From: an uncultured Pseudomonadota bacterium
GTDB lineage: Bacteria; Oederibacteriota; Muellerivitia; Muellerivitales; Muellerivitaceae
DNA: 64,000 nt
Direction: 5' to 3'
Assembly: GCA_963770835.1 (NCBI GenBank)
Contig: CAVYRH010000007.1
Location: 64,001 to 128,000 of the forward strand
The position numbers were made by a program, and so were the translations under genes. Shown here one piece after another: positions 52,266 to 61,114 of this stretch (positions are counted from its first letter, which is position 1; the number at the start of each line of letters is the position of its first letter). The notes beneath the pieces were generated by a model, which was given only the letters and a program-made list of their open reading frames with translations, ran no database searches and was not told where the DNA came from.

Positions 52266-52616
52266 ATGGAACGTCTGGTGCTTGCGTCGCGAGCGGCCAT
52301 GTCCAATACATCCGTCACCGTTGTAGATATTGAAGGGGTGTTGGATATCAATACGGTGGGCGAGTTCGAGGCCATCCTTCAAGAACTGTTCAAAAAGAAG
52401 CAATATAAGATTGTCTTGAACATGAAAAAACTAACTTATATTTCCAGCGCAGGTTTCGGTGTTTTGATGAGCATCATCAAGGACGTCCGGAAAAACCGCG
52501 GCGACATCAAGATCGCCAATGTCAGTCCCGATATCTACAAAGTTTTCGATTTGCTCGAATTACCCGGACTTTTTCATATCCTGAAAACCGAACAAGACGC
52601 CGTCAGCGAGTTCTAA
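52266..52616 (+). CDS. STAS-domain anti-sigma-factor antagonist
   Basis: GVLDINT, LTYISSAGFGVL (phosphorylatable Ser motif). Confidence 0.88.
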   Translation: MERLVLASRAAMSNTSVTVVDIEGVLDINTVGEFEAILQELFKKKQYKIVLNMKKLTYISSAGFGVLMSIIKDVRKNRGDIKIANVSPDIYKVFDLLELPGLFHILKTEQDAVSEF

Positions 52617-54267: not shown

Positions 54268-54295
54268 TTGACACCCCTTCCCCGGCCCTTATAAT
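54268..54295 (+). promoter_or_regulatory. Consensus sigma70 promoter for glgA and the GGDEF-CBM48 gene
   Basis: TTGACA-N16-TATAAT. Confidence 0.7.
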
Positions 54296-54339
54296 GCCGC
54301 TTTCGACACTCTCGTTTTTAAAGTTGATCTAGGATTCAA

Positions 54340-55866
54340 ATGCCGCGTAAAACTATAAAAAAAACAAAAGTTGTTCCTAAAACCTCCTCTAAGGCCGCCC
54401 GTTCCCCGCATCCTTTAAAGGTTCTCTTGGCGGCTTCGGAAGTCGTACCTTTCGCTAAGACGGGCGGGTTAGCCGATGTGGTAGGGGCCCTTCCTAGGGC
54501 GCTCTTGAAATTGGGATGCGAGGTCGCGGTGGTCCTGCCCAAGTACCGCAGTATTTCCCCGGAAAAATACAAATTGAAAGTTGCGGTCAAGGATATGCCG
54601 GTCCCAATGGGAATGGGTGAAATGAGCGCCGATATCCTTTCGACCCGCCTGGGTGATACGCATGCGATGGCTTATTTCATCCAAAACGACCGTTATTTCG
54701 ACCGGGGAGGCTTTTACGGCACTTCCGAAGGTGATTACCACGATAACGCCGAGCGCTTCGCCTTTTTCTCCCGCGCCGTCCTGGAAATGCCCAAAGCACT
54801 CCATTGGTATCCCGACATCCTCCACCTTAACGACTGGCAGACGGGGCTGGCTGCGGCTTACTTGAAAACCATCTACAAGGATGAGCCTGCTTTTTCCTCA
54901 ACCAAGAGCCTATTTACCATTCATAATATGGCCTACCAGGGGCTCTTTCCCAAATACGTCTTGCCCATGACGGGAGTCGGCTGGGAAGAATTCAGCCCCG
55001 ATAAACTCGAATTCTATGACCAGGTTAATTACTTGAAGGCGGGGTTGGTTTACTCGGACGCACTGAACACCGTTTCGGAAAGATACTCTCGGGAAATCCA
55101 GACCGACGAATTCGGGCACGGGCTCCAAGGGGTCCTCAAGTCCCGTTCTTCGGACCTCCATGGCATCGTCAACGGTATCGATTACGATGAATGGAATCCG
55201 GCAACGGACCGGGAAATACCCTCCCAATATACGGTTAAAAACCATGAAAAAAAGTTGGAGTCAAAGCGGAAACTGTTAGAAGAAATGGGGCTGGAGTTTA
55301 AACCCGGCGTTCCAGTAGTGGGATTGGTTTCCAGACTGACCGATCAGAAGGGGTTAGACCTTATCGCCGAAACCATTGAGAGCTTTCTCTCGATGGATGT
55401 CCAATTCATCGTACTGGGAACGGGGGAACCCCGGTACCACGCCCTTTTCGAGAATTTAAACCAGAGATTTCGCACGAAGTTGTCGGTCGCGTTGAAGTTT
55501 GACCCCCGACTTTCCAAAATGATTTATGCCGGCAGCGACTTATTCTTAATGCCGTCGCGTTTCGAGCCCTGCGGCCTGGGCCAAATGATCGCCATGAAAT
55601 ATGGAACCATCCCGGTGGTGCGCCGCACGGGCGGCTTGGCGGATACGGTGGAAAACCTTTCGCTGGACGGCAAAAAAGGGACCGGGTTTGTATTCGACAA
55701 TTACATCGGGGATGAACTTCTTTTCACCATCAAGCGGGCCGTAGAAGCCTTCCACCAGCCAAAGCTTTGGAAGGCCCTGGTCCAGCGGGCAATGAAAGAG
55801 GATTTTTCCTGGGATGTCTCCGCCGAAAAATATCTGGATCTTTACCGGGAAATCCTTCAAAAGTAA
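54340..55866 (+). CDS. glgA: Glycogen synthase
   Basis: KTGGLADV, HLNDWQT, TIHNMAYQG, SRFEPCGL, TGGLADTV. Confidence 0.96.
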   Translation: MPRKTIKKTKVVPKTSSKAARSPHPLKVLLAASEVVPFAKTGGLADVVGALPRALLKLGCEVAVVLPKYRSISPEKYKLKVAVKDMPVPMGMGEMSADILSTRLGDTHAMAYFIQNDRYFDRGGFYGTSEGDYHDNAERFAFFSRAVLEMPKALHWYPDILHLNDWQTGLAAAYLKTIYKDEPAFSSTKSLFTIHNMAYQGLFPKYVLPMTGVGWEEFSPDKLEFYDQVNYLKAGLVYSDALNTVSERYSREIQTDEFGHGLQGVLKSRSSDLHGIVNGIDYDEWNPATDREIPSQYTVKNHEKKLESKRKLLEEMGLEFKPGVPVVGLVSRLTDQKGLDLIAETIESFLSMDVQFIVLGTGEPRYHALFENLNQRFRTKLSVALKFDPRLSKMIYAGSDLFLMPSRFEPCGLGQMIAMKYGTIPVVRRTGGLADTVENLSLDGKKGTGFVFDNYIGDELLFTIKRAVEAFHQPKLWKALVQRAMKEDFSWDVSAEKYLDLYREILQK

Positions 55867-55925
55867 AAATCTGCGATTCCCTACTTCGCTTTTAACCACC
55901 ACTCCTGCCAAAATGGAATTATCAA

Positions 55926-57212
55926 ATGGAAGATAAACCGAACAAGTTAACTCAATTTCTCCAGCAAAAGGAAGACGTCCTCCAGGAACGGTGGCGTGCT
56001 TCCGTGCACCAATTGTCCGGCCGCTTGGAGAGTTTCAGCAAGCACCCTGGGATTTTTGGCGAGGTGCGCGGTTTGCTGCTGGATCTGGTAGCGGTGGTGG
56101 AGCGGACGGGAAGCGTAGAACAAGCGGTAGACGCCGAATTCAACGAGATATTGGCCCACCTCAGGGCTCTTCAATCGGACCACCAACTTTCCTCCGCCGA
56201 CATGGTTTTCCTCCTTTTTTCCATGAGGGACGCGGTTCGGGAAGCGGTGCGAGAGGTCGTGGATATGGGGCCTGACGGCCAGCATGAAGTTTCCACACAT
56301 TTCCAGGTGGTAAGCCAGGTTTCCATGCTGTTAAACCGGCTGGGGCTTGTCTTTTTCGAGGGCGCCATGCGGCTACGGGAGGATGGGGGCACGCAGGACG
56401 TACTTGCCATTGAATATGCCCTCCTTTATGAACGGGCCCGCCAGATGGCTATCACCGACCGCCTGACCGGGCTTTACAATTTTGGCTATTTCCACGAACG
56501 CCTAAAAGAAGAGCGAATGAGAGCGGAGAGGTACCATCGTCTTTTATCGCTGGTCATTCTCGATATCGACCATTTCAAGAAATACAACGATTCCAACGGC
56601 CATCCGGCAGGGAACGAGGTTTTAAAGAAAATCGCCACGATCCTAAAACAAGAGGCCAGGGAAGTGGACATTGTTGCCCGTTATGGAGGGGAGGAAATGG
56701 TCATCATCCTTCCAGAAACAAGCCGGAGACGAGCCGCCGAATTAGCGGAACGAATTCGTCAAAGGGTTTCAGAAGGGCTCTTCGACCACATGCAATCCCA
56801 ACCGCTCGGGAAGCTGACTATCTCGGCGGGCGTGGCCACCTTTCCCGTTGACGCCTCCACGGAGGATGACCTGATTAAAAAGGCGGACACCAGTCTTTAC
56901 CAGGCCAAAGCCCAGGGCCGCAATCGGGTCGTGGTCTTTGAGCCGCCAATCAAGGTGCCGATCACCTATCGGCCCAACCGGGAAATTTCCAAGGTCGCAT
57001 TGGTTGGCAACTTCAACAACTGGGACAAAGACGCGGATCCCATGTTACGTCAGGAGGATAGTACTTTCCGTTTCGTGATCGCCCTCAATCCCGGACTTTA
57101 TCATTACAAGTTTGTTTTGAATGATGTCGAATGGATACCCGATCCATCCTGTCCGGAACGAGTTCACGACGGGTTGGGCGGTGATAATAGCGTGCTGCGG
57201 GTACACGCTTAG
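55926..57212 (+). CDS. Diguanylate cyclase: helical RsbRD_N-like N-domain + GGDEF + C-terminal CBM48 (AMPK-beta-like glycogen-binding) domain
   Basis: DRLTGLYN, DIDHFKKYND, I-site REVD, RYGGEEM, AKAQGRN; then VALVGNFNNW...PGLYHYKFVLNDVEWIPDP...DGLGGDNSVL. Confidence 0.9.
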   Translation: MEDKPNKLTQFLQQKEDVLQERWRASVHQLSGRLESFSKHPGIFGEVRGLLLDLVAVVERTGSVEQAVDAEFNEILAHLRALQSDHQLSSADMVFLLFSMRDAVREAVREVVDMGPDGQHEVSTHFQVVSQVSMLLNRLGLVFFEGAMRLREDGGTQDVLAIEYALLYERARQMAITDRLTGLYNFGYFHERLKEERMRAERYHRLLSLVILDIDHFKKYNDSNGHPAGNEVLKKIATILKQEAREVDIVARYGGEEMVIILPETSRRRAAELAERIRQRVSEGLFDHMQSQPLGKLTISAGVATFPVDASTEDDLIKKADTSLYQAKAQGRNRVVVFEPPIKVPITYRPNREISKVALVGNFNNWDKDADPMLRQEDSTFRFVIALNPGLYHYKFVLNDVEWIPDPSCPERVHDGLGGDNSVLRVHA

Positions 57213-57321: not shown

Positions 57322-60153
57322 ATGGCCGATTACAAGTCAACACTCAATATCACGCAGACCTCTTTCCCCATGAAAGCCAATCTTCCCCAAACCGAGCCGG
57401 AGAGGCTCAAACTTTGGGAAGGGATGGGCTTTTACCGCCGCACCTTCGAGAAGCCGGGCGCCCCTAAGTATGTTCTGCACGACGGCCCTCCCTTTGCCAA
57501 CGGCGACATCCACATGGGCCATGCCTTGAATAAAGTGTTGAAGGACATCATCGTCAAATACCAGGCCTTGAAAGGTCAGGACGCGCCCTACGTACCGGGG
57601 TGGGATTGCCACGGCATGCCTATTGAGCACAAAGTGGTGGAGCAATTGGGCCCCAAGGTTAAGGCCATGTCCAAGGTAGAAATCCGCAATGAGTGCCGGA
57701 AATACGCGGGAAAGTTCCTGGACCGCCAGCGGGAGGAGTTCAAACGCCTGGGCGTTTTCGGCGATTTTGAGAAACCTTATAGCACCATGGACCCGGCTTA
57801 TGAGCTGTCCCTGGTGAAGGCCCTGACAAAGATGGTTTCGGAGGGTTATGTCAACCGCCGCTTGCGCCCCATCCACTGGTGTCCTGTGTGCAAATCCGCC
57901 TTGGCCGAGGCCGAGGTGGAATACGCCGACCATGAATCCCTTGCCGTGACAGTCGCCTTTCCAGTGAAAAAGCTACCGGACGACGTTTTTCCCAATACAC
58001 CCCGCCAAAACCTCTCATTCCTCATTTGGACGACCACCCCCTGGACGCTGCCGGCCAACCTGGGGATTTCGGTGCATTCCGATTTTGAGTATGTGACTCT
58101 TCAAGTGAGGGACGCTTATTACATTGTGGCTAAGGTGCTTTTGCCCCAGGTGGCAGCCATGTGCGGTTGGAAGGCTTCGGATTTCAGGATTATTGATGAG
58201 ATCCGAGGTGAGGCTTTGGACCGTTCCCTGGCCCGACACCCTTTTCTAGACCAAGATTCCCTTGTGATGGTAGGCGCCCATGTAACCGCAGAGGCCGGCA
58301 CGGGCTTGGTGCACACGGCCCCCGGCCATGGCCGGGAAGACTATGAAATTGGCTTGAAATACAACTTGCCCATCTATTCGCCGGTGGACGAGGCGGGGAA
58401 GTATGATTCCCGGGTCAAGGAATATGAGGGAATGACCGTCTGGGATGCCAATCCCAAGATCGTGGAAAAACTTAAAAGCCTGGGCCGACTTCTTTCCCTT
58501 CAAACCATCAAGCACAGCTACCCGCATTGTTGGCGCTCGAAAAATCCCATCATCTTCCGTGCTACCGCCCAATGGTTTATCGAGCTGGATCACAAAGATT
58601 TGCGCAAGAAATGCCTGGCGGAAATCGAGAAGGTCCAATGGATTCCTTCCTGGGGAAAGGACCGAATCAAAAACATGGTGGAAGGCCGCACGGACTGGTG
58701 TATTTCCCGGCAGAGGGCCTGGGGCGTGCCCATCGCGGCCGTTTACTGCAAGGCTTGCGGGAAGGTTGTGGGCGACCTCAAAGTGCTGGAGTCCATCGTT
58801 TCGCTGGTCCAAAAAGAAGGCATCGACGGCTGGTTTGAACACCAAGCACAGGATGTTCTCCCCCAAGGATTCAAGTGCCCTTGCGGTTCCTCCGAATTTG
58901 TAAAGGAAGAGGACATTTTGGATGTTTGGTTCGAATCCGGTAGTTCCCATTTCGCGGTCATCGATCAAAGGGAAGAACTAAAAAACGCGAATTATATCCT
59001 TTATTTAGAAGGAAGCGACCAACACCGCGGTTGGTTCCAACATGCGCTGTGGACCGGTGTGGCCTTGAAGGGAAAGGCGCCTTTCAATGGTGTTTTGACC
59101 CACGGTTTTATCCTGGACGCAGAAGGCAAAGCCATGCACAAGAGCGCGGGCAATGTCATCGATCCCCTTGAGATGATCAAGAAATACGGCGCGGACGTCC
59201 TGCGCCTATGGGTTTCCTCCGAGGATTACACCGAGGACGTTTCCATCAGCGAGGAAATGCTGGCCCGCATGTCGGAGGCCTACCGCCGTATCCGCAATAC
59301 TTTTCGCTTCATCCTGGGGAACATCCAGGATTTCAATCCCAAGGCTCATCGCGTGGCGGAAAAGGACATGACGCCCCTGGACCGTTGGGCCTGGATGGAA
59401 GCCCGGAAGACCCTTTCCGTTCTGAGGGAAGCTTATGACCAATACCAGTTCACGAAGGTTTTCCACCAGGTGGACAATTTCTTCTCCGTGGCCTTGAGTG
59501 CGGGTTATTTCGACATCCTCAAAGACCGGCTTTATACTTTTGAAACGGATTCACCCGACCGGCGGGCTTCCCAAACCGTGTTGTATGACATCTTGAAGAA
59601 CTTTGTGATGGCCGTGGCGCCCATTCTTTCCTTTACCGCCGAGGAAATCTGGCAAAGCCTCGCGGAGAAATTCCGGGAGAAGGGTGAAAAAAGTGTGTTT
59701 GGCGGCCGTTGGGAGGCCGTGGATGCACAGATTGACCAAGCTTTTGAGCAAGAATGGGAACAGATATTGTCGGTTAAAAGGGCAGTTTCCAAGTCCCTGG
59801 AAGGCTTGCGGCAGGCCAAGACTATCGGGAGCTCCCTGGAAGGAGAAGTGGACCTTTATGTCGGTAATGACAAGGTGAAATCGACCCTTCAAAAACATAT
59901 CGACGAGCTTCGATATTATTTCCTCGTGTCCAAGGTTGAATTGAAGGATGGAGAGGTGCCTTCGGACGCCCTTGATGCGGAGGATTCGAACCTTAAAATT
60001 AAGGCCATCACCCGGAAATCCGCGGGTCAAAAATGCGCCCGGTGCTGGAATTATTACTCCTCGGAACAAATGGACAAGACTTATGCCGACATTTGCCACC
60101 GCTGCGGGCCTATCGTAAAGAAGTTCCAAAAGGTTTCGGAGGGTAAGGCCTGA
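57322..60153 (+). CDS. ileS: Isoleucine--tRNA ligase (type 1)
   Basis: DGPPFANG, HMGH, WTTTPWT, DWCISRQR, AMHKS, C-terminal CARC...CHRC zinc finger. Confidence 0.97.
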   Translation: MADYKSTLNITQTSFPMKANLPQTEPERLKLWEGMGFYRRTFEKPGAPKYVLHDGPPFANGDIHMGHALNKVLKDIIVKYQALKGQDAPYVPGWDCHGMPIEHKVVEQLGPKVKAMSKVEIRNECRKYAGKFLDRQREEFKRLGVFGDFEKPYSTMDPAYELSLVKALTKMVSEGYVNRRLRPIHWCPVCKSALAEAEVEYADHESLAVTVAFPVKKLPDDVFPNTPRQNLSFLIWTTTPWTLPANLGISVHSDFEYVTLQVRDAYYIVAKVLLPQVAAMCGWKASDFRIIDEIRGEALDRSLARHPFLDQDSLVMVGAHVTAEAGTGLVHTAPGHGREDYEIGLKYNLPIYSPVDEAGKYDSRVKEYEGMTVWDANPKIVEKLKSLGRLLSLQTIKHSYPHCWRSKNPIIFRATAQWFIELDHKDLRKKCLAEIEKVQWIPSWGKDRIKNMVEGRTDWCISRQRAWGVPIAAVYCKACGKVVGDLKVLESIVSLVQKEGIDGWFEHQAQDVLPQGFKCPCGSSEFVKEEDILDVWFESGSSHFAVIDQREELKNANYILYLEGSDQHRGWFQHALWTGVALKGKAPFNGVLTHGFILDAEGKAMHKSAGNVIDPLEMIKKYGADVLRLWVSSEDYTEDVSISEEMLARMSEAYRRIRNTFRFILGNIQDFNPKAHRVAEKDMTPLDRWAWMEARKTLSVLREAYDQYQFTKVFHQVDNFFSVALSAGYFDILKDRLYTFETDSPDRRASQTVLYDILKNFVMAVAPILSFTAEEIWQSLAEKFREKGEKSVFGGRWEAVDAQIDQAFEQEWEQILSVKRAVSKSLEGLRQAKTIGSSLEGEVDLYVGNDKVKSTLQKHIDELRYYFLVSKVELKDGEVPSDALDAEDSNLKIKAITRKSAGQKCARCWNYYSSEQMDKTYADICHRCGPIVKKFQKVSEGKA

Positions 60154-60635
60154 TGATGCTTATGGGCATTTCCATGCTGGTTGTGGCCTTGGACCAATTG
60201 ACCAAATTTCTGGTCCTTAACTCCATGTCCCTCAACGAATCGGTGCCAGTGCTTCCCAACCTGCTTTACCTCACTTATATCCAAAACCCCGGGACGGCTT
60301 TTGGTTTCATGTCGAACATGGAATCGCTGGTACGCATTCCCTTCTTTATCGCGGCAACGGTCGGGGCGACCTTTATCGTCTACATGTATCAGCGGTTGAT
60401 TCCACCTGAAAGGCGGTTCACCAAGATCGCCTTGGGCCTGGTGTGGGGCGGCGCCTTGGGCAACTTGGTGGACCGATTGCTATACGGCAAGGTCATCGAC
60501 TTTATTGAGATGCGTTACCACGAATACCAATGGTTCCCTTATATTTTCAATGTTGCCGATTCCTGCATTACCATTGGGATATTCTATCTGCTGATTGAGT
60601 TCATTACTTCCAATCGCCAGAAGTCTCTTTCGTGA
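60153..60635 (+). CDS. lspA: Lipoprotein signal peptidase II, copy 1
   Basis: DQLTK, NPGTAFG, GGALGNLVDR, VIDF, FNVAD. Confidence 0.93.
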   Translation: MMLMGISMLVVALDQLTKFLVLNSMSLNESVPVLPNLLYLTYIQNPGTAFGFMSNMESLVRIPFFIAATVGATFIVYMYQRLIPPERRFTKIALGLVWGGALGNLVDRLLYGKVIDFIEMRYHEYQWFPYIFNVADSCITIGIFYLLIEFITSNRQKSLS

Positions 60636-61114
60636 GCATCCGGGTGGTTTCCATATTGGCGGTTCTTTTTGACCAGCTTTCTAAATATCTGATCGTACGT
60701 ACCTGCCGGTTAGGGGAATCACTGACCGTTCTTCGGGAATATTTCTATATTACCTACATCCAAAATCCAGGAGCAGCCTTCGGTTTTATGGCTGATACAC
60801 CAGCTTATGTGCGCATCCCCTTTTTTATCGTGATCACACTCGGGGCGGGCCTCATTGTTTACGCTTATCAACGCTTTATTCCCCGGGAAAAGAAACTGCA
60901 CCGATTTGCCCTGGGGTTGATTTGGGGAGGGGCCATGGGTAACTTCATAGATAGGCTTTTCTACCGTAAGGTTGTGGACTTTATCGATGTTCGTTATCAT
61001 CAACACCAATGGTACGTATTTAACATCGCCGACTCCTGCATCACGGTGGGTCTCACGCTTTTAATACTGGGTTATTTGAGCGAAAAGAAAAGTCCTTGGC
61101 GGGTGAGAAATTAA
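60632..61114 (+). CDS. lspA: Lipoprotein signal peptidase II, copy 2
   Basis: DQLSK, NPGAAFG, GGAMGNFIDR, VVDF, FNIAD. Confidence 0.93.
   Translation: MSIRVVSILAVLFDQLSKYLIVRTCRLGESLTVLREYFYITYIQNPGAAFGFMADTPAYVRIPFFIVITLGAGLIVYAYQRFIPREKKLHRFALGLIWGGAMGNFIDRLFYRKVVDFIDVRYHQHQWYVFNIADSCITVGLTLLILGYLSEKKSPWRVRN

Follow-up and report, generated by a model that had tools for sequence, protein, structure and literature searches.

The glgA locus and the fusion protein

The window analysed here is a 64,000-nucleotide (nt) stretch of the genome of an uncultured bacterium (contig CAVYRH010000007.1, positions 64,001 to 128,000). On its plus strand, to which all window coordinates refer, it contains glgA (54340..55866) and, directly downstream, the gene of a protein designated P0001 (55926..57212). 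GlgA is a 508-amino-acid (aa) bacterial glycogen/starch synthase of family GT5 (TIGR02095, 586.6 bits against a cut-off of 328.45; PF08323), while P0001, with 428 aa, joins an N-terminal domain, a GGDEF domain and a family 48 carbohydrate-binding module (CBM48). A preliminary description, made from the letters of the window, had set the two genes 59 nt apart and placed a consensus TTGACA/TATAAT promoter ahead of glgA. Both statements hold: the intergenic spacer (55867..55925) is 59 nt long, and a promoter-like site with a 16-nt spacer (54268..54295), ending 44 nt ahead of the glgA start, matches the sigma-70 consensus at 12/12 positions. No other perfect match occurs in the whole window, where 0.01 would be expected, and the genome (4.58 Mb) has 10 including this one. 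The consensus with a 16-nt spacer also lies 5' of another open reading frame (ORF) of the host, which presumably encodes an L13-like ribosomal protein. Upstream of glgA an identical site was present in 9/16 related loci, within the limited upstream window that was scanned. Between the promoter and ileS, spacer included, the plus strand showed no terminator-like site, which makes co-transcription of glgA and the P0001 gene plausible.

In P0001 the profile PF00990 (GGDEF) matches aa 175-334 with 162 bits, and AMPK1_CBM matches aa 351-427. No membrane helix or signal peptide is evident. The AlphaFold model (mean predicted local distance difference test score 88, predicted template modelling score 0.67) contains six N-terminal helices, a separate helix at aa 156-176, a GGDEF fold and, about five residues further on, a beta-sandwich. 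The all-helical N-domain covers aa 7-148 (55944..56369). The helix (56391..56453, with the motif EYALLYER) is likely a dimer or signalling helix; in the family alignment 10/21 of its columns are at least 90% conserved. The GGDEF domain (aa 175-337, 56448..56936) and the CBM48, which is of the AMPK beta type (AMPK, AMP-activated protein kinase; 56952..57206), are joined by a linker span of 36 or 38 residues in 179/185 family members. Columns conserved to at least 90% number 81/161 in the GGDEF domain, 31/84 in the CBM and 16/145 in the N-domain, the least conserved part. The motifs GGEEM, RxxD, GNFNNW, YHYKF and WIPDP are all present as they had been described.

The N-domain had been called RsbRD_N-like. 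The resemblance to RsbR-type non-haem globins is weak, consisting of the six helices and a PF14361 match on aa 8-108 (E 1.5e-4), whose 22.8 bits fall below the cut-off of 24.3. The best plausible structural match is the stressosome globin 3zta, tied with unrelated helical folds, and the family alignment shows no conserved His or Cys in this domain. The profile search that had been suggested bore out GGDEF and AMPK1_CBM and left RsbRD_N under its threshold. It is plausible that the N-domain receives a second input.

Residues of the CBM48 and of the GGDEF domain

The C-terminal module is assigned to PF16561 (37.7 bits, cut-off 26.8), in agreement with the AMPK-beta/CBM48 signature noted earlier; on the same segment PF02922 gave 18.7 bits, under its cut-off of 22.4. 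The closest solved modules are an archaeal-type pullulanase module and those of AMPK beta1 and beta2 (AMPK match E 2.7e-6). In the alignment W366, K395, W403, L417, G418 and N421 of P0001 correspond to W100, K126, W133, L146, G147 and N150 of AMPK beta1. W100, K126, W133 and N150 are reported to be critical for glycogen binding by AMPK (PMC4032982), and W100, K126, W133, L146 and T148 are named as sugar contacts in its CBM, through which glycogen inhibits the kinase and which also binds beta-cyclodextrin and short oligosaccharides (PMC2642990). The residues W366, K395, W403 and N421 are invariant in 85/85 aligned type A proteins (85 of the 120 listed) and in 42/42 of type B; the family types are described below. 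At L417, the equivalent of the AMPK hairpin contact L146 (the other being T148), 51 of the 85 type A proteins have Leu and 19 have Met. Because the four residues critical in AMPK are kept and invariant in both types, alpha-glucan binding by the P0001 module is likely. It is the only AMPK-type CBM of the host genome.

The GGDEF domain scores 182.7 bits with TIGR00254, the canonical diguanylate cyclase profile. An ungapped alignment equates D213, N221 and N230 with D327, N335 and D344 of PleD, and K218 with K332. D213, K218, N221 and the GGEEM loop (aa 254-258, 56685..56699) are those of a canonical metal- and phosphate-binding site, and the metal, phosphate and sugar-edge ligands are conserved. 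For the metal and phosphate ligands and the GGEE of the loop this holds in each of types A, B and C. The loop is GGEE in 180/187 members and GGDE in 3. The inhibitory (I) site, RxxD (REVD in P0001, aa 245-248, 56658..56669), is present in 178/182. The active site had been described as intact, which is correct for these ligands and incorrect for the two positions which set specificity: the base-reading position holds N230 (56613..56615; PleD D344, GacA S348) and the cross-dimer position holds F186 (56481..56483; PleD R300, GacA Y304), the GacA equivalents being taken from the alignment with 6d9m. In type A proteins the NRR motif has also lost its second Arg (G187 in P0001).

An Asp at the base-reading site enforces GTP, whereas Ser or Thr occurs exclusively with a GGDE[F/Y] loop, and Ser combined with GGEEF is inactive (PMC6456294). 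Three other papers agree on D344 (PMC7288161, PMC9140294, PMC12943098), and among them this Asp is reported to be essential and to be the c-di-GMP (cyclic di-GMP) specificity residue. Arg occupies the cross-dimer site in 94% of predicted cyclases; in the Hypr enzyme GacA the Tyr found there favours cGAMP (3',3'-cyclic GMP-AMP), and the Y304R substitution shifts the product to c-di-GMP (PMC6456294). The literature searched, as far as its text was accessible, describes Asp and Ser/Thr at the specificity position and contains no characterisation of Asn. By its residues P0001 thus departs from canonical cyclases in one defining feature, the base-reading Asp, and from Hypr enzymes in two, having Asn for Ser/Thr and GGEE for GGDE[F/Y], while its non-Arg cross-dimer residue agrees with the latter. 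Textbook Hypr membership is excluded by the GGEE loop. The candidate products are c-di-GMP, cGAMP or none. The c-di-GMP output proposed in the preliminary description is weakened by the two non-canonical positions, and it still ranks first because of the GGEE loop, the I-site, the association with EAL proteins and the large c-di-GMP network of the host.

The fusion family, its gene context and the host

Both GGDEF and CBM48 were found in 187 of the 330 proteins collected. Their N-termini are of at least three kinds: the helical one (type A), type B, and one with EAL and sensor regions. Among the 120 best homologues listed, PF00990 and PF16561 both matched 116, and the other four gave shorter, partial matches. 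One copy of the N-domain is present in 22/24 host-family genomes and in 0/16 others. In a set of 99 genomes of the phylum the CBM query matched 28/30 host-family genomes and nine more, eight of which encode type B proteins of 370-390 aa with the same GGDEF-CBM48 part and an unrelated N-domain; the ninth match is an anti-sigma-like protein. A search with type B returned both domains in 42/42 proteins. The representative search added a short form (P0308) and P0222, in which EAL, a sensor-like region, an Asn-type GGDEF and CBM48 share a single chain of 691 aa. Source labels of the relatives include Polyangiaceae and Deltaproteobacteria, and the Atlas cluster closest to it (score 0.96) has 81 members, with Planctomycetota the commonest source among the 11 that are labelled.

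In the GGDEF tree (56 rows), whose bootstrap was not fully settled, the 25 fused rows and the CBM-less Asn-type L102 lie on one side of a branch supported by 98/91, and a clade of the 25 fused GGDEFs alone was not rejected (p-AU 0.36). The 25 fused CBMs likewise group apart from 14 other CBM48s (97/88). The clades of both trees are congruent, and over 300 pairs, which are not independent, identity in one domain correlates with identity in the other (rho 0.61). These patterns suggest one old GGDEF-CBM48 fusion whose N-terminus was swapped afterwards. Asn-type GGDEFs without a CBM exist as well (6/82 motif matches in generic loci), and the Ser/GGDE (Hypr-like) proteins sampled branch apart from the fusion clade. 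L075, L097 and L100, Ser/GGDE proteins from Aminicenantes and Acidobacteriota genomes, form one clade outside the CBM48 family.

CBM48 modules were also seen in other arrangements. Many proteins in the range P0177-P0322, of about 330-490 aa, consist of three to four tandem AMPK-type CBM48 modules, with no further Pfam domain in the three that were scanned. An extracytoplasmic function (ECF) sigma factor gene at L152:2158-3388 (genome G050) is followed by a gene whose product, an anti-sigma-like membrane protein, ends in a CBM48, another signalling layout with a glycogen module. A small stand-alone CBM48 protein is encoded divergently from a CBS+GGDEF gene at L153:4011-5850 (G029).

Within the host family glgA lies immediately 5' of the fusion gene in 26/28 genomes, the remaining two being undecided at contig ends; in the initial survey of relatives it did so in 21/22, with a contig break in the last. 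The adjacency counts that follow come from overlapping, non-independent loci. The pair was adjacent in 48/48 loci with both genes, the fusion gene adjoined ileS (57322..60153; used as a background-synteny control) in 40/41 informative loci, and ushA adjoined glgA in 16/18. Both ushA-glgA breaks (L127:9328-12614 and L132:9391-12719) are insertions of two genes, one glgE-like (alpha-amylase family) and one for a GT4 glycosyltransferase, a mild sign that glycogen genes may gather near glgA. Outside the host family, 14 of the 40 metagenome loci contained distant type A members; 10 of these had more than 900 bp of upstream DNA and 9 were distinct. A stand-alone EAL gene stood upstream in 4 of these 9. 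In type B loci a Cof-type HAD hydrolase gene is found downstream in 5/6 of those annotated. Within the phylum, glgA is present in every genome that bears the fusion (37/37).

The preliminary description had also seen a hint of a second input in the upstream STAS gene (52266..52616), which is anti-sigma antagonist-like (TIGR00377, 76.9 bits, cut-off 53.5) and part of the conserved gene block. This suggestion found no support: a 5'-nucleotidase-like gene and the promoter separate the STAS gene from glgA, and the gene was in none of the distant loci examined. Its protein is 67-99% identical in 11 relatives and more conserved than its neighbours. Between ileS and the lgt-like gene (60153-61114) lie what we take to be two tandem signal peptidase II-like ORFs, and this pair is kept across the host family.

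Besides glgA, the host genome (G000) has two phosphorylase genes and one that is glgB-like; it also has 20 GGDEF ORFs, 8 EAL matches above cut-off, 20 PilZ matches and one DAC. The other glycogen clusters are at C2:97663-102096, where the glgB-like gene has a neighbour presumed to be a GH57 gene, and at C16:43189-49170, where the second phosphorylase lies between what are presumably phosphoglucomutase and amylomaltase genes. The classical GlgC-GlgA-GlgB set was not recovered, as the best glgC (TIGR02091) score in this 96% complete genome was 120 bits against a cut-off of 424.9. At E 1e-60 glgC was found in 0/99 genomes of the phylum (8/14 in the control), while glgA is present in 89/99. Bacteroidetes are reported to be without GlgC as well (PMC10395257).

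Proposed function and relation to known systems

The reading favoured here, to which an even chance is given, is that P0001 is a cytoplasmic enzyme that docks on glycogen/alpha-glucan and makes a cyclic dinucleotide, likely c-di-GMP, in a glycogen-dependent manner. At the level of sequence it is supported by the architecture, the sugar-contact residues, the metal and phosphate ligands, the I-site and their family-wide conservation. The helix at aa 156-176 would dimerise P0001, the paired CBM48s would bind the multivalent granule surface, and this binding, with a linker of fixed length, would change how the two GGDEF half-sites are apposed, in the simplest form through clustering that activates the enzyme. 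Feedback at the RxxD site would limit output, and the exchangeable N-terminus could supply a second, lineage-specific input. The carbon store would thereby set a local second-messenger signal, and being transcribed together with glgA would, in the host family, keep the sensor in step with granule synthesis.

Several observations weigh against this reading. In the CBM, AMPK T148 is not retained; the position (G419) is Gly in 84/85 type A proteins. In the GGDEF domain Asn stands in place of the base-reading Asp in 182/182 members that could be scored (5 unmatched); among the other GGDEFs of the host, Asp is there in 16/16 scorable (3 unmatched). The cross-dimer Arg is likewise missing from the family (F 152, Y 21, L 8, unmatched 6, of 187), which is a weaker sign because only 9/15 scorable other host GGDEFs carry it. 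The glgA pairing, to which the preliminary description had pointed, stands for the host family, where the whole block smc-(GT9)-ftsY-STAS-ushA-glgA-fusion-ileS-lspA-lspA-lgt-rluD is conserved along with it, and fails elsewhere, so that the conservation among relatives which that description had asked for is half borne out. glgA was missing upstream in 9/9 of the distinct distant type A loci and in 6/6 type B loci with upstream DNA, a different gene takes the upstream place in the home-like locus L108, which shows no glgA linkage, and in the single-contig genome G029 the fusion gene and glgA are about 670 kb apart. As judged from these gene orders, glgA linkage is a feature of the host family and not of the GGDEF-CBM48 system. 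The presence of glgA in every fusion-bearing genome says little, since most genomes of the phylum carry it anyway. The four EAL loci are mutually related and may represent one or two events.

The alternative that survives best, though unlikely, is a promiscuous glycogen-docked cyclase in which N230 and the aromatic cross-dimer residue admit both ATP and GTP, giving 3',3'-cGAMP or a mixture, so that the glycogen signal would be insulated from the many c-di-GMP enzymes of the host. Both positions that tell Hypr from canonical enzymes depart from the canonical state in the whole family, F186 falls on the GacA Tyr that favours cGAMP and N230 on its Ser (PMC6456294), and an Asn, as long as Asp and with an amide that donates and accepts, may suit the GGEEF geometry. 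The near-universal GGEE loop speaks against it, given that known Hypr enzymes pair Ser/Thr with GGDE[F/Y] exclusively and that Ser with GGEEF is inactive (PMC6456294), as does the EAL association, which favours c-di-GMP; a non-Arg cross-dimer site is, moreover, not rare in this host. A bolder version, also doubtful, would make the ancient GGDEF-CBM48 module a third GGDEF specificity class (Asn/aromatic/GGEEF), producing a dinucleotide other than c-di-GMP (cGAMP or another) only when docked on glycogen. If true, this would amount to a dedicated 'energy-reserve' second messenger, a bacterial counterpart of AMPK glycogen sensing, with the module spread across several uncultured lineages and rewired to different N-terminal sensors.

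It is quite improbable that P0001 is a weak or dead cyclase acting as a granule-bound receptor of c-di-GMP (through the I-site) or of GTP, with information flowing from c-di-GMP to glycogen metabolism. Such a role would fit the loss of the guanine-reading Asp, reported to be essential, the retention of RxxD and, in type A, the missing NRR Arg. Degenerate GGDEF receptors usually lose the metal and phosphate ligands, which here are conserved with the GGEE loop in types A, B and C, and the invariant Asn looks selected rather than decayed. No ExR(x)6R (GlgX-type) motif was found in the glgB-like or phosphorylase ORFs of the host, so a receptor would need a separate adaptor.

A CBM that senses soluble maltodextrins or cyclodextrins, or packs against or binds a protein, with the glgA position an accident of frozen gene order, would accord with the order kept from smc to rluD throughout the host family, with neighbours outside it that are unrelated to glycogen and with the binding of beta-cyclodextrin and short oligosaccharides by the AMPK module (PMC2642990). 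It is rendered hardly probable by the invariant sugar-contact residues, by a glgA-fusion pair that is unbroken in its non-independent loci while the junctions on either side sometimes break, and by the two insertions of glgE-like and GT4 genes right upstream of glgA.

What is new in P0001 as read here is that known domains are combined in one protein whose active site is non-standard; the GGDEF+CBM48 architecture is not described in the literature searched, which includes few subscription journals. With PleD, WspR and DgcR the protein shares the GGDEF fold, the metal ligands, the N335 equivalent, the GG(D/E)EF loop, RxxD and the preceding helix, and it differs in having Asn for D344, Phe for R300 and a C-terminal CBM48. 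Like the Hypr enzymes GacA and Bd0367 it has an aromatic cross-dimer residue and no base-reading Asp; unlike them it has Asn instead of Ser/Thr and GGEE instead of GGDE. The family makes the role of Asn at the specificity position testable, and P0001, being small and apparently soluble, could be assayed with glycogen, GTP and ATP alone.

The N-domain weakly resembles RsbR-type non-haem globins (PF14361; 3zta) and globin-coupled cyclases in its six helices and below-cut-off Pfam match, and the Atlas neighbours of P0001 include GGDEF+RsbRD_N/Protoglobin clusters; the family differs from these in the absence of a conserved haem His and in the replacement of the domain in types B and C. The likeness to the AMPK beta CBM (1z0m, 1z0n, 2f15) is that of a non-catalytic glycogen module on a catalytic signalling protein; the P0001 module is bacterial, fused in one chain to a cyclase rather than carried by a subunit of a kinase trimer, and has Gly for T148. 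In Streptomyces a cyclic dinucleotide is likewise tied to glycogen, through GlgX, a c-di-GMP-activated glycogen debranching enzyme (PMC9530166). GlgX is an effector below c-di-GMP, whereas in P0001 the cyclase domain itself bears the glycogen module. If the favoured reading is true, P0001 would supply the missing direction, in which the carbon store feeds into signalling by cyclic dinucleotides; in many bacteria such signalling decides on attachment, motility and dormancy.

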